From Desulfobacterales bacterium (lineage in GTDB: Bacteria > Desulfobacterota > Desulfobacteria > Desulfobacterales > UBA2245), in NCBI GenBank assembly GCA_040771865.1, contig JAXGZF010000011.1, positions 62,001 to 98,347 on the forward strand: a stretch of DNA of 36,347 bases, read 5' to 3'. The notes beneath the pieces were generated by a model, which did no database searches, was not told the origin of the DNA, and was given only the letters and a program-made list of their open reading frames with translations. The position numbers were made by a program, and so were the translations under genes. Positions within the stretch are counted from its first letter, which is position 1. Each line of letters starts with the position of its first letter. Shown here piece after piece: positions 4,166-36,347 of the stretch.

Positions 4166-4800
4166 CGACTCTTCAGGTGGGCCGGCCGCGGATAGCCTTT
4201 CACCGCCCCCAATGCTTCAGCGAGCTGAGTCTCGCTCATGCCGACATCAGTCAGCTCCCCGGACAGATACCTGTCGTAAGCTCCCAGGTCGAGCAGGCCG
4301 TGGCCGCTGAAAGTGACCACGATGGTCTTTTCCTTCCCCTCTTCCCTGGCCTTGATTGCTTCTTCCATCACGCAGGCCAGAGCGCTGCCCCACTGGCCGG
4401 CGCCGGTCTCGGTGGTGATCCGCTCGATGCCGAAGACCTTGTTGTAGTAAGCCTGGGGCACGGCCGTGTTCGGTTTGTGGCTGCCCGGCGGGCTGACGGA
4501 TTCATTCTTGAAGTAAATGCGCGCCGGAGTTCCCAGGGCTTTTTCGAATCTGGACGCCCGGGTCAACGGACTGGGCCGCCAGATTCGCAGCGCATCCAGA
4601 ACCGGCTCGGGAATATCGATCCAGCGCTGAGTGGATACCTCCTGTTCGATGAGGTTCATCGGAAAGACCGGGGCCAGATCCTCGGGTTTGATCGGGTTAC
4701 TGTCCGGTCCCAGGGGTGGGTTGAGCTTGATGTCGGAAAGAATATTATACCGCTGTAGCGGCATCCTGTCTTGCGGCAGGATGATGTTCTTGGGCTCCAT
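4162..4800 (-). pseudogene. trpB2: TrpB2-type tryptophan synthase beta-like PLP enzyme with a large in-frame internal deletion
   Basis: [32 protein letters not shown] (PLP Lys) and [13 protein letters not shown] join directly to the C-terminal EEA..AREEG....[10 protein letters not shown]. Only 212 aa, against roughly 450 for the family. GGAGG RBS precedes ATG 4800. Confidence 0.85.
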
Positions 4801-4853
4801 GCGTCTTCCTCCTTGCGCAATCTTGCGTTGGTTTTGTAAAACCGTCCTCATCG

Positions 4854-4887
4854 AAAAAAAAGTCCACCGCTTGATTCAGCGGTGGAC
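4854..4887 (-). terminator. Intrinsic terminator in the trpB2 leader (attenuator terminator candidate)
   Basis: Minus strand reads GTCCACCGCT-GAATCA-AGCGGTGGAC followed by T8, about 55 bp upstream of the trpB2 start. Confidence 0.8.
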
Positions 4888-4918
4888 CGTCATGCCATCT
4901 GTGCTTTGTAACCCGACC

Positions 4919-5005
4919 TCAGGGCATAGCGTCACACGGCATCTGCCGCCAGTATAAGAAGGAGGCCACGGAAGTTGAACACCATGAACTGAGGAAACTA
5001 TTCAT
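4919..5005 (-). promoter_or_regulatory. Candidate attenuation leader peptide MNSFLSSWCSTSVASFLYWRQMPCDAMP
   Basis: Manually translated 28-aa ORF with two Trp codons (FLYWR) ending about 30 bp before the terminator. Confidence 0.5.
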
Positions 5006-5048
5006 GCTAAATGACTACCCAATCTATGACCCGGTTGTCAAGACAAAC

Positions 5049-5615
5049 TCACACCCGCGTCATGAACTTGCCTGTTTCGGTGTTGACCCGGATCACGGTG
5101 CCGCTTTCGATATACTCGGGCACCTGAACCACCACTCCGTTGGACAGAGTGGCCGGCTTGTTGCGGTTGGTGGCCGTGACGCCTTTGATGACCGGCGGTG
5201 TATCGACAATTTCCAGATCCACGGTCTGGGGCAGTTGAATGCACAGGGGATTGCCATCGAGCAGCAGGACGATGATTCCCTCCATTCCCTCGATGAGCCA
5301 GTCGGCGTCATCTCCCAAGGCTTCGGCGCTCAGGGTGTGCTGCTCGTAGGTGCCGCTGTCCATGAAGACGTACATGTTTCCGTCGCGGTACAGATAACTG
5401 GCCGGGTGCCGTTCGAGTTCCACGTCTTCTATATCGTCGTTGCCCTTGAAGACCTGGTCGAGCTTCTGGCCGCTGCGCACGTCGAGAAAGCGCACCTTGT
5501 AGAGGGTGGCCGAGCCGCGGGCCGACGGGGTCTGAACCTCAATGTGATGGGTTGTAAAGATCTGGTTTTTCAGGCGCACCACGTCGCCTTTTTTCAGGTT
5601 GCTTGCTTTGGGCAT
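5049..5615 (-). CDS. yeiP: Elongation factor P-like protein (EfpL/YeiP subfamily)
   Basis: MPKAS.LKKG, loop TPSARGSATLYK.RF (Arg rather than the PGKG Lys) and C-terminal KPATLSNG..VQVPEYI..G..IRVNT. Confidence 0.9.
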   Translation of the reverse strand: MPKASNLKKGDVVRLKNQIFTTHHIEVQTPSARGSATLYKVRFLDVRSGQKLDQVFKGNDDIEDVELERHPASYLYRDGNMYVFMDSGTYEQHTLSAEALGDDADWLIEGMEGIIVLLLDGNPLCIQLPQTVDLEIVDTPPVIKGVTATNRNKPATLSNGVVVQVPEYIESGTVIRVNTETGKFMTRV

Positions 5616-5889
5616 AACCGCTTGCTCCTTTGCGTATCAATTGAAAAGGATCGTTCGCGGAGCGCCTTCTGGCGGTCCAAAGATCCGGCCCTTTTTATCC
5701 GATTTTACGGTTTCTGGCAATCTTTAACATCGGTCGTTGACCTTCGCAATATCCGGCCTTCGGAAGCCCGGCATCGGACAGTGCGAAACAAATCACAGCG
5801 GGGAGGATCTTCAACCCATGACAGCGTTCAACCATATCTTCAGGCTTGTTCGTATTGGGAAAAAAACCGATAATGGTATGATGACATAG

Positions 5890-6032
5890 CAGGGTGTTGA
5901 AAAACAAGAATCAGGCAGTCAGGCAAGGCGCGCGGCGATGCGACAAGCGCAGCATATTCAAGCATATGTGAGCATTGGCGAGAGCCGCGCAACGCTGAAT
6001 GGCGGCCTCAGGCGCAGTTTTTCAACACCCTG
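5890..6032 (+). mobile_element. 143-bp MITE, family A, copy 3
   Basis: Same TIRs and body; ATAG duplicated on both sides. Confidence 0.9.
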
Positions 6033-6456
6033 ATAGAGAGTTTTTTATGAAAAAAGTGTCTGGGTTAAGGTGAGTTGAAGCGCTGAAGGAAGGAAATACG
6101 CATGAAAACCAGGTGGTTTACTGTTGGATGAGAACAAGACGGCGTATGATGTTGTAAAATAAAAGGAGAGGTATGTTCAAATGAGACCGGGGAAACGATT
6201 ATTTGCATGAACTGGACGGGTCGCTTTGCGTAAAGAGATATTTCAGGGTCACGGAGGATCGTACGAATCAATTTTCAGGCCAGCACAACTTAAAAAAATA
6301 CCCCGCTCAAAATCTATCGCGAATTTTGGAATCGGCCATTTTCCTTGACGAAACTGCAATTTTCTTTTATAAATCGCAAGGATTTTTGACATTCGAAGTT
6401 CTGAAATCAACCGCATACCAGAGCTGGATGCAACTTATTATTTCTTGATTGATGTA

Positions 6457-6601
6457 TGACGCTCTCGAACAGAGTAGAAATTGAGATTCCAAGGTAAAAA
6501 GTTCGAGGCGTCGCAAATCCCGAGAAGTCAAGCGTGCCTGGCAATATTCCGGTGAATGGAATTGCCGCGCAACTTGTAAATTGGGCTTTTGCTGAACCAT
6601 C
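6457..6601. repeat. Degenerate intergenic repeat, family B, copy 1
   Basis: Core AAAAGTTCGAGGCGTCGCAAATCCCGAG and right end GCCGCGCAAC...TGGGCTTTT...CCATC are shared with 11685-11860 and 15807-15953. Confidence 0.6.
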
Positions 6602-6693
6602 TGTTTTCGGCAATCAAGAGGCTGTTGGATCGACGTTCTTACATCGGCTTTTATTCAATGCGCCAACACCTTCTGTCATGAAGAGGTTGTATC

Positions 6694-8385
6694 ATGAATG
6701 CATCCGCCATGCTGGCAAAGCGGAAAGATGAATCCATTCAAACTGCCCGGGCGGTAAAGCAAATCATCAACTCCTTTTTGATTGTATTTAAAAACTATAC
6801 TTTGTATCCGGAATATCACACCATCTGTAAAACCTCACTAGAAAAGGCAAAACCTCCTTTATATTTGTTTTTCCAGAACAATTTTCACTTCCGTATCGAT
6901 GTTCAGAAAAATGCCCTGATATTCGATTCGCAGATCGTGTTCGAAAGCGGAGAAACTGAAGAAAATCTCGCATTTATCTTTTTCCGTGACGGCATCGAAT
7001 GGCTCGAATTTCAAAGGGGTTTGACCGAAGACGAGATCGATCGGTTTTTCAAGGTATTGTACCGCTATCGCATTCTGCGCGAAGAATCTGAAGGGGATCT
7101 GGTGACCGCGCTGTGGGCCGAGGATTTTTCTCATATCCGTTACGGTGTCAAGGAAGTCTTCTGGAATGCGGACAACCTCATCGACTTGGGCGAACTCAGG
7201 GCCGCAGATCCGGAGCAGGCTACACAAAACGCAACCCAGGCCGGTCTCGCTCAGATGCAGCCGCCCGCATCCATATCGGAATGGGCGGAATCCTTTCGAT
7301 TAACTCCTGAAGATAATGAGGCCATCAAGCAGATGATCATCGAGGATGAAACCCTCGACAGAACCCAGGATGTACTGGATATTCTGGGAATCATTCTCAT
7401 AAATCTTGAGAATTCAAAGGACTTCGAAGAGATTCTGAATTACCTGAGAGAAGAGTTCTTTGACACGCTTCAGCTCGGAGAGCTGGACTTCACGCTGAAA
7501 CTATTGAAAAACCTTCATTCCATCCGGCAAAAACTCAACCAGCACAAGCCCTGGACCGCCCCGCTTTTCCGAAATTTTTTCTCCGCCTTGTGCCGTGAGT
7601 CAACGCTCGCCGTTCTGCGTCATGTGTGGCCGACAATCGGGCCCGAGAATGCAGAAAAGCAAAAACTCGTTTTAGATATTCTCACACTGCTGCCATCCCG
7701 AGCAATTTCTGCGCTGATTCCCATGATGCTGGAATGCCATCCATTGCATATTCACGACCTGATGATGGATATCGTCGTCCATCTTGCCCGCAGGAACAGC
7801 AATCCCCTCAAAAAGTTGCTGACGAATTCGAATGAGGCCATTGTGGCCTTAAGTCTTAAAGTTCTTTCAATGCTGAATCAGCCTGAAAATGTCGATATAT
7901 TCCTGAATATGACGCGCCATGATTCGGAAAATATCAGAAAACAGGCCCTTACCCATCTGCTGGCCTGTGAAGGTAACTATCTAGACGTCTGCATCTCGCT
8001 GATCGATGATTCCAGCAATGCCGTCCGATGGCTGGCTTTAAAACATCTTGGTCAAACCCGCAATTCCCGTGCGGAAAAGCTGCTGACAACCTATCTTGAA
8101 AACAAAGATGCCCGGGAAGAAAATCGAAGTCATATTTTAGACTGTTACAGAACCCTGGGTCAATGCGGCGACGATGAATGCCTTGATTTTCTGAAAAAAA
8201 CACTTTTCCCTCGAAGCTGGGTCCAAAAGCTCGGCATCGGCAACACCATTCACCAGGAAGGAGCTTTGCACGCCTTGACCGCGTTGAACCCCGAAAAGTC
8301 CGGACCGATACTGTCAAAAGCCTCCAGAAGCCTTGTCCCATCGGTCAGAACTGCCTACAAAAAAGTCCTGGCAGGAGGGAGATAG
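6694..8385 (+). CDS. HEAT-repeat domain protein
   Basis: 563 aa with C-terminal HEAT-like units (HDSENIRKQAL, DDSSNAVRWLAL, LGQCGDDECLDFL). Confidence 0.8.
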   Translation: MNASAMLAKRKDESIQTARAVKQIINSFLIVFKNYTLYPEYHTICKTSLEKAKPPLYLFFQNNFHFRIDVQKNALIFDSQIVFESGETEENLAFIFFRDGIEWLEFQRGLTEDEIDRFFKVLYRYRILREESEGDLVTALWAEDFSHIRYGVKEVFWNADNLIDLGELRAADPEQATQNATQAGLAQMQPPASISEWAESFRLTPEDNEAIKQMIIEDETLDRTQDVLDILGIILINLENSKDFEEILNYLREEFFDTLQLGELDFTLKLLKNLHSIRQKLNQHKPWTAPLFRNFFSALCRESTLAVLRHVWPTIGPENAEKQKLVLDILTLLPSRAISALIPMMLECHPLHIHDLMMDIVVHLARRNSNPLKKLLTNSNEAIVALSLKVLSMLNQPENVDIFLNMTRHDSENIRKQALTHLLACEGNYLDVCISLIDDSSNAVRWLALKHLGQTRNSRAEKLLTTYLENKDAREENRSHILDCYRTLGQCGDDECLDFLKKTLFPRSWVQKLGIGNTIHQEGALHALTALNPEKSGPILSKASRSLVPSVRTAYKKVLAGGR

Positions 8386-27854: not shown

Positions 27855-29051
27855 TCAAGCCTTGAATGCATTGACCCCTTCATTCCAGGCCTCCATCATG
27901 CGTTCACCGATTTCGCGAAACTCCGGGTGGTCGGCAATATAGCCGGGAATCAGCGCCCGGGTCTCGGTCACGGCCTGGGCCATCCGGTCGATGATGCCGG
28001 CAGCCGTTGCCGGCGGCAGCGAAAGATGGGCCACGGAAAAGCGATCCAGCAGCTTGCGCGGCCACCACTTCCTGGTTCCCGCAAGCGTCAGGGCAGGAAC
28101 GTCGTTTCGAATATAGGCCGTGGTTGTCACCAGATCATAAACCGGCGCCAGTTCGACCATGCCCATGGGGTCTGCGTACAGCACGCCGAAGTTTTTCAAA
28201 TGCGCGTCGCCGTTTCGCAGCATGACCGACAACGCCAGGGTGGAAAAGAACTGTTCCCTGGCGGTCTTCAGGCAGGGCCCGGAAACAAACTCCCGAATCG
28301 TTTTGGCCGCGCGTTCATAGCTGCCAGAGTATTTCTGAGAGGTTCCCAGGGCCTGAAGGCTGCACATGTCTTCAAAGCCGATGGAGTCTCCGTCGGAAGT
28401 AACGTCAAATCGGCGCATAATGAAAAGACCGCCGTTATTCGAAAGAAAGAAATCCGGGGTCGGCAGTCCGGCGCGTCGGGCCGCCGTCATGCAGAAATAC
28501 TCGTTGGCGGCCAGAAACGGGTAATCAGCGCCCCACGACTTGACGATATAACCTGCCGAAGCCAGAGTGCTCCGTTCGGATGCCTCCAGCAGCACCTTGG
28601 GCTGAACGCCGGATATGCCGGAACGCAGGGCATACCTGTCCACGAGTTCATGAAACAGTTCCGCGGCGTCGGGATAGGCAAGCAGCTCATCCAGAGACTC
28701 AGGCGTTTCGGAAACGCGCGGGAATGAATCGCCGGAAAGCGCGAACCGGTTTCTCCCCACCTGATTTCCGCCCGTTACCCGCAGAATGGACAGATCATCC
28801 TCGCCGATGATCTTGGCAATGGCCCTGCGAATGGCATCCAGCAGGGCGCCCTCCGGAAGGTTCATCTGGAAGACGGGATGCAGTTCGCGGCTGACCCAGC
28901 TCTCAATCCGCACCGGCATGGTCAGGGACACCTGAGCATCAGCGCTTGCATCCGGTTCATAGGCAAACACGTATTTCTGCTGCCGCTCACGGGCCAGAAG
29001 CCCGGAACGCCGGTTGCCCGACCACACGGAAAGGGAGGAAACGCCCGGCAT
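27855..29051 (-). CDS. hipA: HipA-family Ser/Thr kinase toxin
   Basis: N-terminal F.Y...VSLTMP, GISGVQPK Gly-loop, NEYFCM, FEDMC, NGDAHLKNF and LAPVYD. Confidence 0.93.
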   Translation of the reverse strand: MPGVSSLSVWSGNRRSGLLARERQQKYVFAYEPDASADAQVSLTMPVRIESWVSRELHPVFQMNLPEGALLDAIRRAIAKIIGEDDLSILRVTGGNQVGRNRFALSGDSFPRVSETPESLDELLAYPDAAELFHELVDRYALRSGISGVQPKVLLEASERSTLASAGYIVKSWGADYPFLAANEYFCMTAARRAGLPTPDFFLSNNGGLFIMRRFDVTSDGDSIGFEDMCSLQALGTSQKYSGSYERAAKTIREFVSGPCLKTAREQFFSTLALSVMLRNGDAHLKNFGVLYADPMGMVELAPVYDLVTTTAYIRNDVPALTLAGTRKWWPRKLLDRFSVAHLSLPPATAAGIIDRMAQAVTETRALIPGYIADHPEFREIGERMMEAWNEGVNAFKA

Positions 29052-29296
29052 CAGACGATCTCCTCTTCACGGAGTTCTTCCAGCGTGGGCGGTCTGCCCG
29101 CGGGGCGAACCCGCAGTTCCAGGCCGAGGAATTCAAGCGCCCGGATCAGCTTGCGCACGCCGATTTCCTGCACGGTTCCGTTTTCGATCTGCCCGATGGT
29201 GGTGCGGCTCATGCCGATGGCTTTGGCCAGATCCGCCTGGGTGATTTTGCGGGTCTTTCGCGCCTGTCGAATTTTTTTTCCAATAGCAAACAGCAT
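29051..29296 (-). CDS. hipB: HipB-like XRE HTH antitoxin
   Basis: IG..IR..RK...TQ..LA...G.SR.TI..IENG; stop overlaps the hipA start (TGATG). Confidence 0.88.
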   Translation of the reverse strand: MLFAIGKKIRQARKTRKITQADLAKAIGMSRTTIGQIENGTVQEIGVRKLIRALEFLGLELRVRPAGRPPTLEELREEEIV

Positions 29297-29298
29297 AA

Positions 29299-29358
29299 AT
29301 GCATTATATGTAAATCATTTTATGTTTTCAATGCTTATTTGCATTTGATATAATGCAT
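29299..29358. promoter_or_regulatory. Inverted repeat upstream of hipB (putative autoregulatory operator)
   Basis: ATGCATTATAT (29299-29309) and ATATAATGCAT (29348-29358) in an AT-rich promoter region. Confidence 0.55.
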
Positions 29359-29907
29359 ATCATGCCCGGCGGTCCATTTTGCCGGCTGGCCGCCGATTGC
29401 GGCATCTCCGTGGATACGGCCCGGCGCTGGATCTCGGTGCTGGTTGCCAGTTTCATCGTTTTTCTCCTGCCGCCCCACCACCGCAATTTCAACAAACGGG
29501 TGATCAAAAGCCCCAAGCTCTATTTCTACGACACCGGCCTGCTCTGCCATCTGCTGGGCATCCGCCAGGCGGACCAGCTCGTAAACCACCCGCTGAGAGG
29601 CCCCGTTTTCGAAAACCATGTGGTGGCGGAAACCGCCAAAGCCTATACACACCACCGCCGGACCCCGCCCCTGTTTTTCTGGCGCGACCGGTCCGGTCGT
29701 GAAATCGATCTGATCATCGAAGAAGCCGGCACCCTCTTTCCCGTGGAGATCAAATCGGGCATGACCGTATCGTCGGACATGCTCGACAGTCTGCGCTGGT
29801 GGACCGCTCTCAGCGGTCAATCAACCGCCTGCGCCACCCTCGTCTACGGAGGCGGCGATTTCCAGACCCGTCACGGAATCGCCGTACGGCCCTGGTTCGC
29901 GATCTGA
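29353..29907 (+). pseudogene. DUF4143 C-terminal half of an AAA_14-DUF4143 ATPase (5'-truncated)
   Basis: LA.D.GIS..T...WISVL.ASF, KRVIKSPKLYFYDTGL, FEN.V..E and EIDL...PVEIKS; Walker A/B domain absent. Confidence 0.8.
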
Positions 29908-29915
29908 TCCGCCTC

Positions 29916-30082
29916 CGCCCGCTTTTTCATGGCGCTTTTTGAGGATTGGAAATACGATTCGGATTGTGCCTGTTTTCTTAAAGCGGGCTTTTTGTCACCC
30001 AAAAGTGCGTTTTAAGCCCTTTTTCGCGGCTCATTATTATTAGAATTGTTTTTATTTCAATATGTTCGCTTGGCCCGACCCC
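29916..30082 (-). repeat. Family C repeat, copy R3
   Basis: Near-identical to 31708-31874; ends in GCTTGGCCCGACCCC. Confidence 0.9.
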
Positions 30083-30109
30083 GAAACCACAAGCCACAAG
30101 CGGGAACAT

Positions 30110-31267
30110 TCATAAAAATTCACCGGACATAAACGGGTTTTCGATTCGGATGCCGCTTACGGTCAGGCTTTTCTCGCCGTTATAGAAAATACGTCCTTCC
30201 TGGCAGCGGTCGCCCGCGACATTCCGAAACCGCTCGATCCCCTTGATGAACTGAGGGTGAAAGGTCTCCGCCGATTTGATTTCCACGGGAATCAATTTTC
30301 TTTGCGCTTTAAAGATAAGATCCACTTCGTTGCCGTTGGTGTCCCTGTAAAAATAGAGTTCAGGTCTTTTCCCTGCATTGGTCTGGTTTTTCAGGATTTC
30401 CAGAAGAACCAGGTTTTCAAAAAGCGCCCCGCGCAAAGGATCGCGACTGGCCTGTTCCGCGGTTTCGATGCCCAGTAGAAAGGAGAGAAGCCCCGTGTCG
30501 CTGAAAAAGATTTTCGGTGATTTGATAACCCGCTTTCCGATATTTTCGTGAAAAGGAGCAAGTTCCCAGACCACGAAGGAAGCCTTGAGAACGCTTATCC
30601 AGTTCTTGACGGTCGTTCCCGAAACACCGACATCGTTGCTGAGGGAGGCATAGTTGATCACCTGTCCGACCCGGCCGGCAAGAAGGACAAAAAACTGCTG
30701 AAACTGCCTGAGATCTTTCAGATTGATCAAGGCGCGGACATCTCTTTCCACATATGTTTGGAGATAACTGTTGAAGAAACGGCCCGGCGCAAGTCCGTCC
30801 TCATGAAGACGCGGGTAAGCGCCCTTCACGATCAAATCGAACGGGTCCCAGTCCTGCCGATAATTCTGCAATTCCTTGAAGGAAAACGGGAAGAGGGTCA
30901 ATACCGCCGTCCGGCCGGCCAGAGATTGGCTGATACCCTGCTGAAGTTCGGGCTGGTGGCTCCCGGTCAGGATAAACATGCTCCTTTTCCGCGTAGCATC
31001 CACAATGCCCTGAAGATATGAAAGCAGTAACGGAAGACGCTGAATTTCATCCAGCACCGCGCCTTCCGGAACCCTCGAAAGAAAGCCTCTGGGGTCCGCC
31101 TCCGCAGCCATGCGGACATCCGGATCTTCGAGGGAAAAATACGGCTTGTCCGGAAATGTTGTCCGGGCAAGGGTGGTTTTCCCCGATTGACGCGGTCCCA
31201 GGATGGTCGCCACCGGATATTCAGCGACGGCGGCAAGCAGCTCGGATGTGATGTCTCGCGTGATCAT
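30110..31267 (-). CDS. AAA_14 + DUF4143 ATP-binding protein
   Basis: GPRQSGKTT Walker A, LDEIQ Walker B, LTGS, SLAGR, YVERDV, KSPKIFFSDTGL and EVD...PVEIKS. Confidence 0.93.
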   Translation of the reverse strand: MITRDITSELLAAVAEYPVATILGPRQSGKTTLARTTFPDKPYFSLEDPDVRMAAEADPRGFLSRVPEGAVLDEIQRLPLLLSYLQGIVDATRKRSMFILTGSHQPELQQGISQSLAGRTAVLTLFPFSFKELQNYRQDWDPFDLIVKGAYPRLHEDGLAPGRFFNSYLQTYVERDVRALINLKDLRQFQQFFVLLAGRVGQVINYASLSNDVGVSGTTVKNWISVLKASFVVWELAPFHENIGKRVIKSPKIFFSDTGLLSFLLGIETAEQASRDPLRGALFENLVLLEILKNQTNAGKRPELYFYRDTNGNEVDLIFKAQRKLIPVEIKSAETFHPQFIKGIERFRNVAGDRCQEGRIFYNGEKSLTVSGIRIENPFMSGEFL

Positions 31268-31372: not shown

Positions 31373-31708
31373 CTATTTGAAAGCTTGGCCCCGTTCAATC
31401 ACTGCAAGGTTCAGAAGCAATGATTCAACCAAATCCAGCATTTGATTGAGTTTTTCGCCGAAATCATCGGCCGAAAAGCTTCTCAGGCTCATGCCGGCGT
31501 GGTTGATGTCGTTTCGCAATTCCCGCAAGGTGGAAGCCGCTTTTTCTATCTCCGGCACGGTTTGAATCGCCCTGACCAGCCGGCGGGTCAGTTCTTTATT
31601 GTCTCCGGCATCGCGCTTCCAGTCGTTTTCGGGCTTTTTCCGATTTACGATGTCTAACGCCTGGGATGCAATTTCACGTGTTGTGATATCGGTGATCTGT
31701 TCCGACTC
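31373..31708 (-). pseudogene. C-terminal HEPN fragment of a Csx1/Csm6-like (TM1812-type) nuclease
   Basis: Frame is open from the edge of repeat R4 with no convincing start: ...REIASQALDIVNRKKPENDWKRDAGDNKELTRRL...LRELRNDINHAGM (RxxxxH motif)...FGEKLNQML. Confidence 0.7.
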
Positions 31709-31874
31709 GCCCGCTTTTTCATAGCGCTTTTTGAGGATAGGAAAAACGATTCGAATTGTGCCTGTTTTCTTAAAGCGGGCTTTTTGACACCCAAAAGTGC
31801 GTTTTAAGCCCTTTTTCGCGGCTTATTTTTATTTGAATTCTTTTTATTTCAATATGTTCGCTTGGCCCGACCCC
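31708..31874 (-). repeat. Family C repeat, copy R4
   Basis: Near-identical to R3; ends in GCTTGGCCCGACCCC. Confidence 0.9.
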
Positions 31875-31887
31875 GTATCCCTAATCG

Positions 31888-31982
31888 TTTTTTGATATCA
31901 AAAAGTGCATTTTAAGCCCTGTTTTGCGGCTGATTTTTAATTGATTTGTTTTGATTTCAAAATCTTAGCTTGGCCCGACCCC
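31888..31982 (-). repeat. Family C repeat, copy R5 (short, in tandem with R4)
   Basis: TTTTTGA...AAAAGTGCATTTTAAGCCCTG...ATTTCAA...GCTTGGCCCGACCCC. Confidence 0.85.
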
Positions 31983-32530
31983 ACTTCCATATATGCCTGC
32001 CGGCTGAAAAAGGATCTGTTTTGGATTGCATCCCCCAGGCGCTCCAGTTCGGGATTGTCTGTCAATGTTTCTTTGGCCTTATTAAAATATTCTTCAATCG
32101 TGCGTTGAGGGTTTGGTGCGCCGGATTGCGGGTCCACGAATGCCAGCGCCACAAGCAAACCGAAATTCCAATCCGCCATTCCGGGCGCTTTTCGAAGTTC
32201 TTTGTACAGATCATGAAGGAGATCGACATGGCTCTCGGGAACCGTTTTTTCCTCTAACAGGGCGTTGAAAAACAAGACTCAGGCCGTCAGGCAAGGCGCG
32301 CGGCGATGCGACAAGCGCAGCATATTCAGGCATATGCGAGCACTGGCGAGAGCCGCGCAACGCTGAATGGCAGCCTCAGGCGCAGTTTTTCAACAGCCTG
32401 CCAAGGCAAGCTCCCACCGAAAAAGAGGAACATCCATCGACAGATGTTCAAGAATGCATTGGACCCGCTGTTCCGCATTCTCCCCGCTGTCATAGAGGCT
32501 TAGGCTCGGACTTTCATACCACAGACTCAT
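31983..32530 (-). pseudogene. Hypothetical gene split by MITE copy 6 and 3'-truncated by repeat R5
   Basis: AGGAGG RBS before ATG 32530 (MSLWYESP...). Removing the MITE plus one 4-bp duplicate joins RWELA to LEEKTVPE in frame, and the frame runs into GGGGTCGGGCC without a native stop. Confidence 0.7.
32258..32400 (+). mobile_element. 143-bp MITE, family A, copy 6 (intragenic)
   Basis: Same TIRs and body; flanks CTAA / CCAA (one mismatch). Confidence 0.9.
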
Positions 32531-32560
32531 TATCGATCCTCCTGTTCCATCGTATTCATT

Positions 32561-32673
32561 CCGTTTCCTTAGAGCCCGCTTTTTGACGCCCAAAAGTGGG
32601 TTTTAAGCCCTGTTTTACGGCTCATTTTTATTAAAATTCTTTTTATTTCAACAGGTTCGCTTGGCCCGACCCC
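32561..32673 (-). repeat. Family C repeat, copy R6
   Basis: Hairpin TTAGAGCCCGCTTTT...AAAAGTGGGTTTTAA and terminal GCTTGGCCCGACCCC. Confidence 0.88.
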
Positions 32674-33109
32674 ATGCCTCGTCAAAATTTGTAGTGAATA
32701 CGCAAGGGACAAGACGGGTAGTCAATAGTGAGCCGATGACACGGTGGGCAAACGATGGGGTTCCTTTTCTAATTGCCTTTTCTATGTATTTTCGGCGATC
32801 TTCTGGGGCAGGGAAAATGGCTTCAAATGCCGCTGCATATTCAGTCGGATCGTCAGCTGGCGGAAGAACAGCGTGATTGCTGGAAAATAGATTCGTCCTT
32901 TCAATCCAGAGTGGGTCGTTGGTGTCCACTTCCCTACGGCCAACACCGGACAACTGACAAAATAATCGCTTTTTGAAGTCCTGGATCATTGCATAGCCAG
33001 TAGGAATACCTGCGGAGGCGGACGCACCGGCACCTAGGAGCCAGGTAAACTGCTGCGGCTTCAGGCAGAACATATTTGCGAACTGCGGTCCGGTTAATGT
33101 CCTTATCAT
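32648..33109 (-). pseudogene. SIR2-like NADase, N-terminal fragment truncated by repeat R6
   Basis: WLLGAGAS.SAGIPT, PS.AH and FTTNFD motifs. The last residues (WGRAKRTC) are encoded by the repeat, and the catalytic-His region is missing. Confidence 0.85.
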
Positions 33110-33176
33110 TCGCTGTTCTTAATCCTATTTTTTATGCATAAGCCCTTGAAACTTACTGTGTGCACCTACGATTGCT

Positions 33177-34961
33177 CTATTGTTTCTCAAAAACTTCGAT
33201 CAAATTCCCATCCGGATCGAGACATCTGAAAAACCGGCGAGATGATTGTCCCCAGTTTTCAAGTTTGGTCACAATCTGGACCTTGTTTTCCATAACCGCT
33301 TTAAATTTGTTCGGGATCTCCGCCACTTCAATATAGAGAAGAGACCGGAATCCGACTCCAGGGAAGTTCTTAGCGTAAGATGCGGGTGCGAGGACCAGCC
33401 CTTGGTGGAAGACAACCACGTCCTGCGATTCCTTCTTGATGCTAAGCCCCAGCAGCCCCTTATAGAAGCGGACCGACTTTTCCATAGAATACACCGGCAG
33501 CTTCGGACCAAAACTCAATCGCTCCAGCAAGGGCTGGGGTTGGCGCTGATTTTCTGAGGTTTTCCCTATAAATGAAGTGATGGTGGTTCGCCGCTGAGCC
33601 GGTTGCCATCCGAAGTCCCCCTTGGAAATCTTGTTGAGATAGATTGTTTGGCCGTCTTCCGTAGTGAGTTTCAGGAATTCAACCTTGAATTTCCCGCTGC
33701 TTCCGACCTGATCCGGGCTACGGCTCACCGTCGCCTTGCGGCGATCGGGAAGTCTGGTTTCCCTCGCGTTGGGAGCCGCCACCACGTCGTCGATCCAGTT
33801 CTTGAGGGAGGTCCTTCTGAGCGGCTCAATACTGGCCTTGTCATCTACTTGGCCACCCGCCAAGCGCGACGCGCATTTCTCGATATAGCTCGCGTCCTGG
33901 ATACCTTGTTTTACCGTCGATAGCCAGTCTGAACCATTGATACAGCCGAGCAGGCCGCCTGTCATCGAGGCAATCGTGTCGGTGTCCGAACCGATTGCGA
34001 ATGCGGCCTTCACCACGCCGTTGATCGGGTCGGCGGCGTGGCGCGACGCGAGATACACCGCCGCGATCGCCGCCACGGTCCCGGCACCGCTAATCTTGCT
34101 GAAGCACTGGAGCTTTTTCAGCACATCGTCATCGAAACTCAACGCCCCCTTCGCGAGTTCTGTTCTGCAGACCTCGAGATATTCCAAGACCTCGGCCTTG
34201 GCCGATTCCCAAAGCTTTGCGTAGGCTTGGAGGCTTTTTTCCGCTTGGCTCTTCCATTCGGGCTGGATGGTCGGGGCGGTTGGAAAAGTGGACCAGACCT
34301 CTGCGTTTTTGATCAAATCCTCCACCAATTCACCATACGCCAGTTTCGAATCCTTGCGGAAAGCCGCCCACAGTGCGAAACCGTAGGCCAAAGCGCCCAA
34401 AAGCGCCCGGGGGTGTCCATGGGTCGTGACGCCGTCAAGGAATATGTTGGCGGCGATCTCAGGATACTCTTTTTCGCCCAAGCGCAAGACATGCGGCAGG
34501 ACGCGCATCGCGACACCGTTGCCGCCCGCGTCGAAATAACGCTTCACATCCTGGGGCTTCCGGTTCGGACTCCATGGCGCGATCCCATCCAGCCACGAAT
34601 CGATCGCTCTCTTGGTCGCGCCGCCCCCGCCACGTTCATAAGCGGACCAAAAGGGCAGCTCCACCTGAGTGAAGTAGTCCCACCAGACCTCCCCTTTCAA
34701 AAGCGACCGGCAGAGGCAAAGAATAAGCTGTGTGTCGTCGCTGTACTCGCCAGCCTCAATAGTCTCCTCGTGAGGAAAAAAACGCCCACCCGAGCGGCGG
34801 GTCCAGCTTCTGAAATCATGGAGACGGCCCTGTGGTTGTTTTTGCACTTTCGACTTGCCGACCCGTTCATTCGGCCAGCCTAACGCGTCGCCGCAGGCCG
34901 CAGCCAGCATGGCACCCACGGCCTTGCTCGCTTTCAACTTTATTGTAATGTTATCGGCCAT
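33177..34961 (-). CDS. ADP-ribosylglycohydrolase (ARH/DraG family) fused to a C-terminal VOC/glyoxalase-like domain
   Basis: GAML..ACGDALG, YSDDTQL, GNGVAMR, THGH and GSDTDTIASMTG.L.G; C-terminal V.SMEKS.RFY..LLGL...FRCLDPDGNLIEVFE. Confidence 0.9.
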   Translation of the reverse strand: MADNITIKLKASKAVGAMLAAACGDALGWPNERVGKSKVQKQPQGRLHDFRSWTRRSGGRFFPHEETIEAGEYSDDTQLILCLCRSLLKGEVWWDYFTQVELPFWSAYERGGGGATKRAIDSWLDGIAPWSPNRKPQDVKRYFDAGGNGVAMRVLPHVLRLGEKEYPEIAANIFLDGVTTHGHPRALLGALAYGFALWAAFRKDSKLAYGELVEDLIKNAEVWSTFPTAPTIQPEWKSQAEKSLQAYAKLWESAKAEVLEYLEVCRTELAKGALSFDDDVLKKLQCFSKISGAGTVAAIAAVYLASRHAADPINGVVKAAFAIGSDTDTIASMTGGLLGCINGSDWLSTVKQGIQDASYIEKCASRLAGGQVDDKASIEPLRRTSLKNWIDDVVAAPNARETRLPDRRKATVSRSPDQVGSSGKFKVEFLKLTTEDGQTIYLNKISKGDFGWQPAQRRTTITSFIGKTSENQRQPQPLLERLSFGPKLPVYSMEKSVRFYKGLLGLSIKKESQDVVVFHQGLVLAPASYAKNFPGVGFRSLLYIEVAEIPNKFKAVMENKVQIVTKLENWGQSSRRFFRCLDPDGNLIEVFEKQ

Positions 34962-35649
34962 GAAGACCTCCGTTCTTATATAGCGTTTCCGACGCCCGGT
35001 CTCCGCGTTGAATCATCCGCGAGAGCGAGGTTTTGTTAAAGAAGTCCGGAGCGATGTAAATCGGTTTATCAATAGTGATTCCCTGCAGGCGCAGTCGGCA
35101 AATTTCCCGTTGTGCCTGCTCTTCTGTATGAACAGCGATACCGGCAATTGAATCAAGTGGAATCGGGTCCCTGAGAAGAACTTCCGCCTGTATATCAGTC
35201 GGCGCTGCGGGAAGATGTCTCGCGGACCGAGTATAAGCAGTGAACCCGGGAGATGTCGGGGCAAAAAGAGAGCGGAACCCCTCAATCCCCGTTCGGATGT
35301 ACCCGCCGCGAGAGCGTGCCGCGTTGCACGGGCAAAAACATGTCTCAGGGTGCCACAGGTAACTGGGATCGATCATCAACACGACCCAGTCCTTGAAAAG
35401 AGGCTCACGTTCCCGGACCTTGAGGAAGTAATAGGTGTTCGGGTACTCGATGGAGCAACAGATCAGATCGTTTCTTCCGTCAAACCGTTCCGTGTCTGTC
35501 GGATTGTGCGGTAAATCATGTTCCTGTAGCGTCCTGGTCGAACAAAGCCCCAACGGATAGTCAAAGATATGGGCCAGGCTTCGCGACTGCGTGAAATGGC
35601 AGATCCGGGTGATCCCACGACTGGCGCACTCTTGTCGGATCAAGTTCAT
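34951..35649 (-). CDS. DarT-like (DUF4433) DNA ADP-ribosyltransferase
   Basis: N-terminal HFT...L..I...GL, RFDG....ICCSIEYPN..Y, NAA and QAEVL....IP...I, which carries the catalytic-Glu motif of DarT. Confidence 0.8.
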   Translation of the reverse strand: MNLIRQECASRGITRICHFTQSRSLAHIFDYPLGLCSTRTLQEHDLPHNPTDTERFDGRNDLICCSIEYPNTYYFLKVREREPLFKDWVVLMIDPSYLWHPETCFCPCNAARSRGGYIRTGIEGFRSLFAPTSPGFTAYTRSARHLPAAPTDIQAEVLLRDPIPLDSIAGIAVHTEEQAQREICRLRLQGITIDKPIYIAPDFFNKTSLSRMIQRGDRASETLYKNGGLHGR

Positions 35650-36347
35650 GGCTTGACCCTCTGGTAGAGTGACTCGTCTGTCGGGAGCAGTGGCGTGAGC
35701 GCACCGCTGTAAAGCAGGATCAGGTTCGTTTTCGCCCGGGTCGCCGCCACATAGAGAAGTCTGCCGTCGTGGGTGAGGGCGTCTTCTTCCCCGTGGGACG
35801 CTATGTAATCCTTGTCAGGAAGGTTGTCGACGTCCAGAAAAGGAACTATCACCACATCAAACTCAAGCCCCTTAGCCGCATGGTAGGTGCCGTGGTATAT
35901 GCCGGGGCCGTCGTTCCAAACCTTAAGGTCGCGATGAAGCCTGGTCGCCTCGCCCCCGAGGGCCGCGCTGAAGACCTTCTCCTGCGCCCTGTCTCTTACG
36001 AGGATGGCAACGCTCAGTGTTTTGGCGGCGCTCCTTGCTGCCTTAAGGGCGATCTCCACCTGCTGCTTCCTGTCCCCGCACTCGACCAAAGTAGGCAGAG
36101 CGCCATCAGCTCTTGGGGAGGTCGGCTCAACCAGATCAGGGATATCGTGAAAGAAAGGCATCCTTGAGATTGCCAACCCAAGCTGGGCAATCTGTTTGGT
36201 GTTCCGGTAATTTTCCTTAAAGAACCATTGCTGGGGGATGTGCAACCCAGCGGAGCGCCAGCTCATCCGCTGCCCGTAGATTTGTTGGGCGACATCCCCG
36301 AAGAACGAAAGAGAACCGTCCTCGGGAATCGCCGCTACCAACGAGCG
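35646..36347 (-). CDS. UvrD-like superfamily 1 helicase, C-terminal part (5' end outside the window)
   Basis: FGD.AQ.IY (motif III), ENYRNT.QIA (IV), TYHAAKGLEFD.V (V) and LLYVAATRA (VI); frame is open to the window edge. Confidence 0.9.
   Translation of the reverse strand, partial: RSLVAAIPEDGSLSFFGDVAQQIYGQRMSWRSAGLHIPQQWFFKENYRNTKQIAQLGLAISRMPFFHDIPDLVEPTSPRADGALPTLVECGDRKQQVEIALKAARSAAKTLSVAILVRDRAQEKVFSAALGGEATRLHRDLKVWNDGPGIYHGTYHAAKGLEFDVVIVPFLDVDNLPDKDYIASHGEEDALTHDGRLLYVAATRAKTNLILLYSGALTPLLPTDESLYQRVKP

Follow-up and report, generated by a model that had tools for sequence, protein, structure and literature searches.

A probable DarHTG-type helicase–DarT–ADP-ribosylglycohydrolase operon at the edge of a small accessory island in a Desulfobacterales genome

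Described DarT systems and the locus under study

Bacterial DarTG systems follow a common logic, in which a toxin that ADP-ribosylates DNA bases is paired with an enzymatic eraser. In DarTG2, studied in Thermus, enteropathogenic Escherichia coli (EPEC) and Mycobacterium tuberculosis, the DarT2 toxin is accompanied by a macrodomain antitoxin, DarG, while in DarTG1, represented by DarT1 of E. coli C7 (8baq), the antitoxin is a NADAR protein (PMC11543638). The system closest to the one considered here is DarHTG (Liu-DS3), reported in Nucleic Acids Research in April 2026. Its components are DarH, a UvrD-like helicase that lacks the 2B domain, a DarT, and the antitoxin DarG3, which belongs to neither known DarG type and is instead similar to the ADP-ribosylglycohydrolases (ARHs) of archaea and eukaryotes (PMC13069673). 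According to the parts of that paper drawn on here, DarHTG in E. coli lowers plaquing by T4 and T7, its defence requires both the DarT active site and the ATP-binding residues of the helicase, construction of a DarG3 mutant failed, and the system is most frequent in Thermodesulfobacteriota and Bacteroidota (PMC13069673). In this study we analyzed a triad of the same kind in a 36,347-nt stretch of DNA from a Desulfobacterales bacterium (GCA_040771865.1, contig JAXGZF010000011.1, positions 62,001–98,347; hereafter the window), and we estimate a probability of roughly 75% that it is a horizontally acquired toxin–antitoxin or abortive-infection defence operon of the DarHTG type, darH–darT–darG3, on the margin of a small accessory island.

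The triad consists of three co-oriented open reading frames (ORFs) in the order helicase–DarT–ARH, all on the minus strand. The darT gene (34951–35649, 232 aa; ORF call and PF14487) and the darG3 gene (33177–34961, 594 aa; ORF call) are intact, and the sequence contains both the 4-nt ATGA stop/start overlap between helicase and DarT (35646–35649) and the 11-nt overlap between DarT and ARH that had been noted in the original prediction. That prediction had described all three genes as intact; this holds for DarT and ARH, as do the co-orientation and the overlaps, but the darH reading frame (35646–36347) is open at the window end and encodes only the C-terminal 233 aa of the helicase, because contig C11 ends inside the gene. 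The end of the window is the end of this contig, in an assembly of 13 contigs that is 98.3% complete by markers. Within DarG3, an ARH domain occupies residues 1 to ~370 (33852–34961, minus strand; PF03747, model and conservation), followed by a small beta domain at residues ~396–450 (33612–33776, minus strand; conservation and model) and by a C-terminal VOC domain of the glyoxalase/bleomycin-resistance fold at residues 486–594 (33180–33506, minus strand; Pfam Glyoxalase/Glyoxalase_2 and model).

Gene order and parts (UvrD-like helicase, DarT and ARH-fold antitoxin) are the same as in DarHTG. In both systems the helicase gene lies upstream of darT in the same orientation, here with a UvrD_C match and the 4-nt overlap; the DarT carries the catalytic glutamate as E156, which aligns to E152 of DarT1 and is invariant; and the likeness of DarG3 to ARH3 and archaeal ARHs recurs in the window protein, for which Foldseek returned ARH3 and MJ1187. 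Many of the related loci described below come from the host groups reported for DarHTG. The window copy differs in that the N-terminal half of its helicase is not in the assembly. The earlier statement that no characterization of this combination was known is out of date, since the system has been described and tested in E. coli (PMC13069673); the helicase–DarT–ARH architecture is itself not new since the 2026 paper, and the window operon is a copy cut by the assembly end. Our literature search found no other paper on the combination, and an apparent mention of "DarT3/DarG3" in a Vibrio preprint proved to consist of reference superscripts rather than a system. What the analysis adds is that an architecture tested experimentally from one E. 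coli operon represents a large, highly conserved family exchanged between phyla, together with three points that we did not meet in the parts of the DarHTG paper drawn on here: a guanine target predicted for the DarT clade, an ARH predicted to act on DNA, and a conserved beta-plus-VOC tail on the antitoxin (PMC13069673).

Compared with DarTG1, the window DarT shares the active-site set R52, D54, N104 and E152 of DarT1 (residue numbers of PMC11543638, in the sections used here), whereas the triad adds a helicase gene, has a DarT tail ~45 aa longer and a tyrosine at the M71 position, and carries an ARH-VOC protein in the place of NADAR. No macrodomain DarG of the DarTG2 kind adjoins the window darT, whose downstream gene encodes the ARH-VOC protein. 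DraG, Tri1, ARH3 and MJ1187 (PF03747) have the fold and metal-binding motifs in common with DarG3; these are, however, single-domain enzymes of ~300–370 aa with protein substrates, while DarG3, at 594 aa, carries two further domains and is paired with a putatively DNA-directed transferase. Unlike in DraT/DraG, the partner is a DarT and not a DraT-type protein arginine transferase, and DarG3 scores 41 bits for similarity to DraG, for which the cut-off is 337.

Conservation of the triad and search for another antitoxin

A DarT search returned 293 clusters at 55–92% identity from many phyla. We then compiled 41 related loci by scanning one genome per species with a DarT profile and locating the partners by tblastn with the window proteins. 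The helicase lies directly upstream of DarT in 39 of these loci; no match was obtained in L019, where the contig begins within the DarT gene, or in L028, where it measures 1.2 kb and DarT is shortened. Directly downstream of DarT, ARH is present in 37, and the loci lacking a match comprise L004, L039 and L041, which end at or in DarT, and L038, which is a true exception. Both partners occur, with the gene order unchanged, in 35 of 41 loci across many phyla, which is far more than chance. At 30–47% DarT identity it also occurs on plasmids, namely in Ralstonia solanacearum (megaplasmid), Streptomyces sp. NBC_01220, Rhodococcus sp. WAY2 and Streptomyces tsukubensis. A broader profile search (E up to 1e-5) gave 1,162 DarT clusters, not all of which are necessarily linked to a triad, and 2,768 clusters contained ARH (E up to 1e-3).

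The distribution is patchy: a match was present in 2 of 400 other sampled genomes of the same phylum and in none of 12 sampled genomes of the same order. Neighbours of the triad in relatives include HsdR, the BREX genes BrxL/PglZ, ABC-3C, SIR2-APAZ with prokaryotic Argonaute (pAgo), and TIR genes. The closest relative, L002 (1628–5312), can be aligned with window positions 32681–36347 with a mosaic identity that ranges from 100% to 82% per 200-nt block; DNA identity is 98.4% in the helicase part, 91.6% in darT and 89.4% in darG3. Because of this mosaic pattern, the sequences suggest recombination among operon alleles. In E. coli, by comparison, blastn of three triads (window, L038 and L042) against 5,426 genomes yielded no match, and no E. 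coli name appeared among the best 120 of the 1,162 DarT matches in a profile search with divergent DarTs, nor among the listed matches of the 293-cluster DarT search and of the ARH search.

Two of the collected loci depart from the common arrangement. In L038 (Anaerobiospirillum, 4442–7589) the helicase is followed by a protein of 497 aa whose N-terminal part is a DarT domain, with no ARH in the next 1 kb; a sample of 400 genomes of the same class gave only two weak matches. L056, on a Nostoc plasmid (1–4047), encodes a large AAA protein together with an N-extended DarT of 531 aa and an ARH of 505 aa that lacks VOC, adjoining BREX genes.

The placement of an ARH-fold enzyme in the antitoxin position, instead of a macrodomain or NADAR protein, was the central claim of the original prediction, and it is borne out by the ADP_ribosyl_GH match of the downstream gene together with a survey of the flanks. 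This survey extended to 4 kb on either side of the triad at 20 loci (E up to 1e-5) and found no Macro, NADAR or NADAR-DarT1 domain among 132 flanking ORFs, so that the macro or NADAR partner which might have lain just outside the window was not encountered at the related loci. The genome itself encodes only one DarT and no NADAR protein detectable with PF08719 or PF22397, although control genomes gave no PF22397 match either. Its single macro gene (Pfam Macro, 4e-47) lies on another contig, C3, ~0.8 kb from the contig start, and a counterpart was found near none of the 41 related triads. We considered whether this gene adjoins the end of the window's contig, and this is unsupported, given that it has no counterpart at the 41 loci and that the closest relative carries an Mrr-like gene at that position.

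This Mrr-like gene encodes HARE-HTH and Mrr_cat domains (type IV restriction-like; PADLOC PDC-S02) and abuts the helicase start in 5 of 20 surveyed relatives, including the closest (L002, 2–922; L006, 4515–5600; L007, 4481–5530; L012, 1851–2909; L022, 4481–5530). A similar gene may lie just beyond the end of the window's contig, and it may be either a fourth component or a fellow traveller.

The DarT, DarG3 and DarH proteins

The 232-aa protein was identified as a DarT homologue both by Pfam (PF14487, 2.2e-20, profile positions 1–200 of 201) and by its match to the guanine-specific DarT1 of E. coli C7 (8baq, 1.2e-22), which was its sole solved-structure match; no DarT2 chain was among the PDB sequence matches at E up to 1. 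The HFT and QAE motifs of the original prediction are present as H18-F19-T20 and Q154-A155-E156 and are invariant among homologues, with further conservation at R55, D57, S66 and N109, while the C-terminal tail (~residues 186–232) is family-specific. In DarT1 the essential or key residues are R52, D54, M71, the guanine-coordinating N104, and E152, as given in the sections of PMC11543638 used here; the numbering of the deposited 8baq chain is one higher than that of the paper. These positions align to window residues R55, D57, Y74, N109 and E156. The same source equates N104 of DarT1 with the thymine-coordinating His119 of DarT2, which would place N109 of the window at that position as well; this correspondence comes from PMC11543638, as our own alignment of 16 sequences (eight triad DarTs, four that have a NADAR partner and four others) included no DarT2.

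Across these 16 aligned DarTs, N109 and the QAE glutamate E156 are kept in all, R55 in 15 (Lys in the Nostoc protein, which lies outside the triad clade) and D57 in 14 (Glu in two, neither of them in the triad clade). Because the DarT1 active-site set is kept, including the base-coordinating Asn, the sequence points to guanine N2 in single-stranded DNA (ssDNA) as the most likely target. In the tree of the same sequences, seven of the eight triad DarTs form a supported clade together with L038 (96/99). The eighth, L058, sits on a branch of length 3.06 and groups with NADAR-linked DarTs, and because it falls outside the clade a single origin of triad DarTs is neither shown nor excluded. The nearest non-triad plasmid DarTs had a NADAR-DarT1 partner in all four cases tested. 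Several DarTs of the clade are only 186–191 aa long and lack the N-terminal HFT part (P0082, P0092, P0095, P0097, P0105 and P0118; the DarT of L028 is likewise shortened), and these may have decayed, or their starts may have been called wrongly. A search of a phage collection gave no DarT match.

The ARH domain of DarG3 matched ADP_ribosyl_GH (PF03747) at 5.9e-42 over residues 16–347. Both metal-binding motifs that had been noted in the original prediction, S74-D75-D76-T77 and D326-T327-D328-T329, are invariant in 28 aligned homologues, as are D25 and H181/H183, such that the motif set of the two-metal site is complete. Sequence matches among PDB chains included Lmo0067, MJ1187 and DraG, and the top Foldseek ranks of the DarG3 model were ARH3 (6g1q, 2.6e-10), MJ1187 (5.4e-9) and Tri1. 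In this model (predicted local distance difference test, pLDDT, of 83.3) the ARH domain (1 to ~370) is followed by a helix, a four-stranded beta domain (401–447), a disordered linker (453–485) and the VOC domain (487–594). The beta domain has invariant L404-P405 and near-invariant D406 and R408, and its strands (401–447) are modelled at pLDDT 84–95.

For the C-terminal domain, Pfam gave matches to Glyoxalase (8.5e-9, residues 488–590) and Glyoxalase_2 (3.3e-8), a sequence match was obtained to Atu1872 (2qnt, 7.3e-6), and the model shows two beta-alpha-beta-beta-beta units. The near-invariant Y543 occupies the position of a His of FosB in the VOC alignment, a residue that is presumably a metal ligand in FosB. 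Judged by its sequence, the domain is probably not a standard metal enzyme, and one may speculate that it is a binding or dimerizing module instead. VOC was detected in 32 of 41 loci, or in 32 of the 33 DarG3 genes uncut by a contig end, and the remaining one (L024) carries RhuM. The domain is kept down to ~26% identity (Burkholderia) and also occurs in the plasmid proteins of Ralstonia and Rhodococcus; it was not detected in one Streptomyces plasmid protein. RhuM (PF13310) takes the place of VOC in DarG3 variants of ~812–818 aa, namely that of L024 (7674–10130) and four protein clusters (P0226, P0230, P0232 and P0240); because VOC is swapped for RhuM in these variants, the C-terminal module of DarG3 appears to be exchangeable. 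RhuM has been proposed as a toxin domain by Anantharaman et al. (PMC3710099, in the part consulted). The window protein has both a VOC and a small beta domain, whereas the text of the DarHTG paper contains neither of the words glyoxalase and VOC and does not mention the beta domain (PMC13069673).

A search of the ESM Atlas with DarG3 residues 396–594 returned generic VOC clusters only, at 0.82, which is below the useful range, and complex prediction for DarG3 with DarT scored 0.00 against a mark of 0.32, a value that is evidence neither for nor against binding. Some triads are followed by additional stand-alone ARH genes (329–344 aa; L012, 6782–7771, and L021, 12248–13282), with a fragment at L014 (9403–9750); in L012 a DUF2188 gene comes after the stand-alone ARH gene.

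The window helicase ORF, which matched UvrD_C at 6.9e-18 in Pfam, corresponds to residues 236–468 of a compact UvrD-like superfamily 1 (SF1) protein of ~468 aa and contains motifs III–VI; its N-terminal half is absent from all 13 contigs. Homologues of ~466–477 aa have all SF1 motifs invariant: FFGDVAQQIY, YRNT, GLEFD and TRAK show no variation in 19 homologues, and the ATP-site motifs GSGKT and DEGQD, which belong to the half of the gene that the window copy is without, are invariant in the 19 relatives as well. By tblastn, the full-length helicase of L002 (~468 aa) is identical to the window protein over the shared 233 aa, and this protein was modelled, with only moderate confidence (pLDDT 76.9). 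The model resembles PcrA, UvrD and Rep (Z 20–21.5), with Z 21.5 over 412 residues for PcrA; its length of 468 aa compares with ~620–650 resolved residues in PcrA and UvrD, and its 2A domain (283–466) superposes unbroken on the 159-residue C-terminal domain of HelD (Z 19.7, rmsd (root-mean-square deviation) 2.2). With its 2A domain unbroken and a total length of 468 aa, the L002 helicase cannot accommodate a 2B insertion and is modelled without that domain.

The best solved-structure sequence match of the helicase was to HelD/helicase IV, an SF1 motor of RNA-polymerase recycling (6wvk, 9.9e-15), and its best NCBIfam match was likewise HelD_BACSU (3.6e-17), but at 61.5 bits against a cut-off of 419; the N-terminal and clamp-arm parts of HelD are wanting in the triad helicase, which has 468 aa compared with ~775. 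An assignment to GajB of the Gabija system was also considered and rejected, as the PADLOC GajB matches are only partial and confined to the shared UvrD core, and the conserved partners are DarT and ARH with no nuclease. In one relative, L017 (5602–7004), the helicase is split into ORFs of 330 and 93 aa.

Interpretation and the neighbouring accessory genes

The most likely explanation for these observations is that DarT acts as a toxin that would use NAD+ to place ADP-ribose on ssDNA bases, most likely on guanine N2, while the ARH domain of DarG3 would hydrolyze the N-glycosidic bond between ADP-ribose and base and in this way keep the host genome clean in uninfected cells. We infer the antitoxin role of DarG3 from its position, its conservation and the failed construction of a DarG3 mutant in E. 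coli. ARH would then have replaced NADAR as the eraser of the guanine adduct; DarH, a compact helicase or translocase whose ATPase is required for defence in E. coli, most likely exposes or tracks single-stranded phage DNA, or releases DarT on infection; and the beta domain with the VOC tail could, speculatively, form an exchangeable accessory module for dimerization, partner binding or sensing.

Several points weigh against the reading of the locus as a DarHTG-type defence operon. The ATP-binding half of the helicase is missing from the assembly, and the operon in this organism is known from sequence alone. Its assignment to the DarHTG type is made by architecture and fold, not by shown homology to the E. 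coli proteins, and the prototype DarG3 may differ from that of the window, since VOC is unmentioned in the paper's text (PMC13069673). The position of M71 in DarT1 is a Tyr in the triad clade. A guanine target is doubtful for one reason: T4 carries AdfN, a NADAR protein that removes guanine-ADP-ribose and counters DarTG1, as well as AdfM, a macrodomain protein active against DarTG2 (bioRxiv 10.1101/2025.11.20.689424, in the part drawn on here), yet E. coli DarHTG acts on T4, and the adduct or its kinetics may therefore differ from those of DarTG1. Lastly, the island has suffered decay, as the SIR2-APAZ gene beside darG3 is a remnant.

One may postulate from this decay an alternative scenario in which the window copy is itself a decaying remnant, with a truly truncated helicase and a DarT/DarG3 pair that persists by addiction. 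The presence of helicase residues 236–468 only, the reduction of the adjoining SIR2-APAZ gene to 153 aa with loss of its pAgo partner, the dispersed repeats at the breakpoint and the split helicase of L017 would all be in keeping with such a scenario; we regard it as unlikely nevertheless, given that the break falls exactly at the contig end, as an assembly gap would give, that the remaining 233 codons are open with 98.4% DNA identity to an intact relative, and that DarT and DarG3 are intact. A module for growth control or the DNA-damage response, of the kind represented by M. tuberculosis DarTG, in which replication is tuned by DNA ADP-ribosylation, would be a housekeeping function rather than phage defence, and DarTG is able to regulate replication and transcription (PMC12170906, in the part consulted), while a phage role in this organism is a prediction only. 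Such a housekeeping role is quite improbable in view of the patchy distribution (2 of 400 in the phylum and 0 of 12 in the order), the placement in variable islands beside restriction–modification, BREX, ABC-3C, pAgo and TIR genes, the mosaic identity among near relatives, and the blocking of T4 and T7 by the E. coli system that shares this architecture (PMC13069673, in the sections used).

The choice of substrate bears on a further alternative, a protein-directed reversible switch of the DraT/DraG or Tre1/Tri1 kind, in which the DarT-like enzyme would modify an arginine on a target protein (perhaps the helicase, or one from a phage) and ARH would reverse the modification. ARH enzymes are indeed known mainly for protein substrates (PMC11543638, in the sections used here), and the enzymes nearest to DarG3 in sequence are hydrolases specific for arginine (in NCBIfam, DraG at 1.1e-10 and Tri1 at 2e-4, each scoring well short of its cut-off), with DraG and Tri1 chains among its PDB matches. 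The transferase, however, is a full-length DarT (PF14487; DarT1 1.2e-22) in which two features of DarT1, a DNA-modifying enzyme, are retained, namely the Asn that coordinates the base and the Asp/Arg of the proton relay, and no DraT- or Tre1-like ADP-ribosyltransferase was seen in the triads, so that a protein switch seems very improbable indeed. The DarHTG reading itself raises the prospect, also put forward in the original prediction, that ARH removes ADP-ribose from nucleic acid as a "third eraser fold": guanine-N2-ADP-ribose would be an N-glycosidic bond to a guanidine-like nitrogen, chemically close to the arginine-ADP-ribose that DraG and Tri1 cut. In its full form, this idea makes DarG3 a genuine third type of eraser fold acting on DNA-base ADP-ribose, with an ARH that cleaves either guanine-N2-ADP-ribose or a linkage resistant to the phage AdfN and AdfM, and with a tethered beta and VOC/RhuM module that is swappable and holds DarT or senses infection. 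We put this forward tentatively, at somewhat less than even odds; a resistant linkage, if present, would account for the activity that DarHTG retains against T4.

The original prediction had also placed the triad in an island rich in defence genes, a description that was generous, as the first 27 kb of the window contain ordinary housekeeping genes and accessory genes are confined to 27.8–36.3 kb. Besides the triad, this stretch holds HipBA, an AAA_14/DUF4143 ATPase, a DUF4143 fragment and the SIR2-APAZ remnant. The last is a 153-aa ORF (32648–33109, minus strand) just downstream of darG3 that corresponds to the N-terminal part of SIR2-APAZ (PADLOC 1.8e-56, profile positions 1–130 of 558). At L002, DarG3 is followed by SIR2-APAZ at its full length of 622 aa and by a short pAgo of 479 aa (4884–8188), and collinearity with the window ends at 32681, inside the SIR2-APAZ gene. 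A dispersed direct repeat of 103–173 nt is present in four copies between the accessory genes (29916–30088, 31708–31880, 31889–31991 and 32507–32682), with 8 matches genome-wide; it may be a MITE or a cassette boundary, and the point at which SIR2 is truncated coincides exactly with one of the copies. The accessory stretch starts with the HipA kinase toxin (398 aa) and the helix-turn-helix (HTH) antitoxin HipB (81 aa) at 27855–29296 on the minus strand, followed by a 184-aa DUF4143-only fragment (29353–29907, plus strand; Pfam) and the AAA_14 + DUF4143 ATPase (30110–31267, minus strand; PADLOC candidate PDC-S01, 5.1e-103). These last two are linked by a 21-nt inverted repeat (29738–29758 and 30271–30291).

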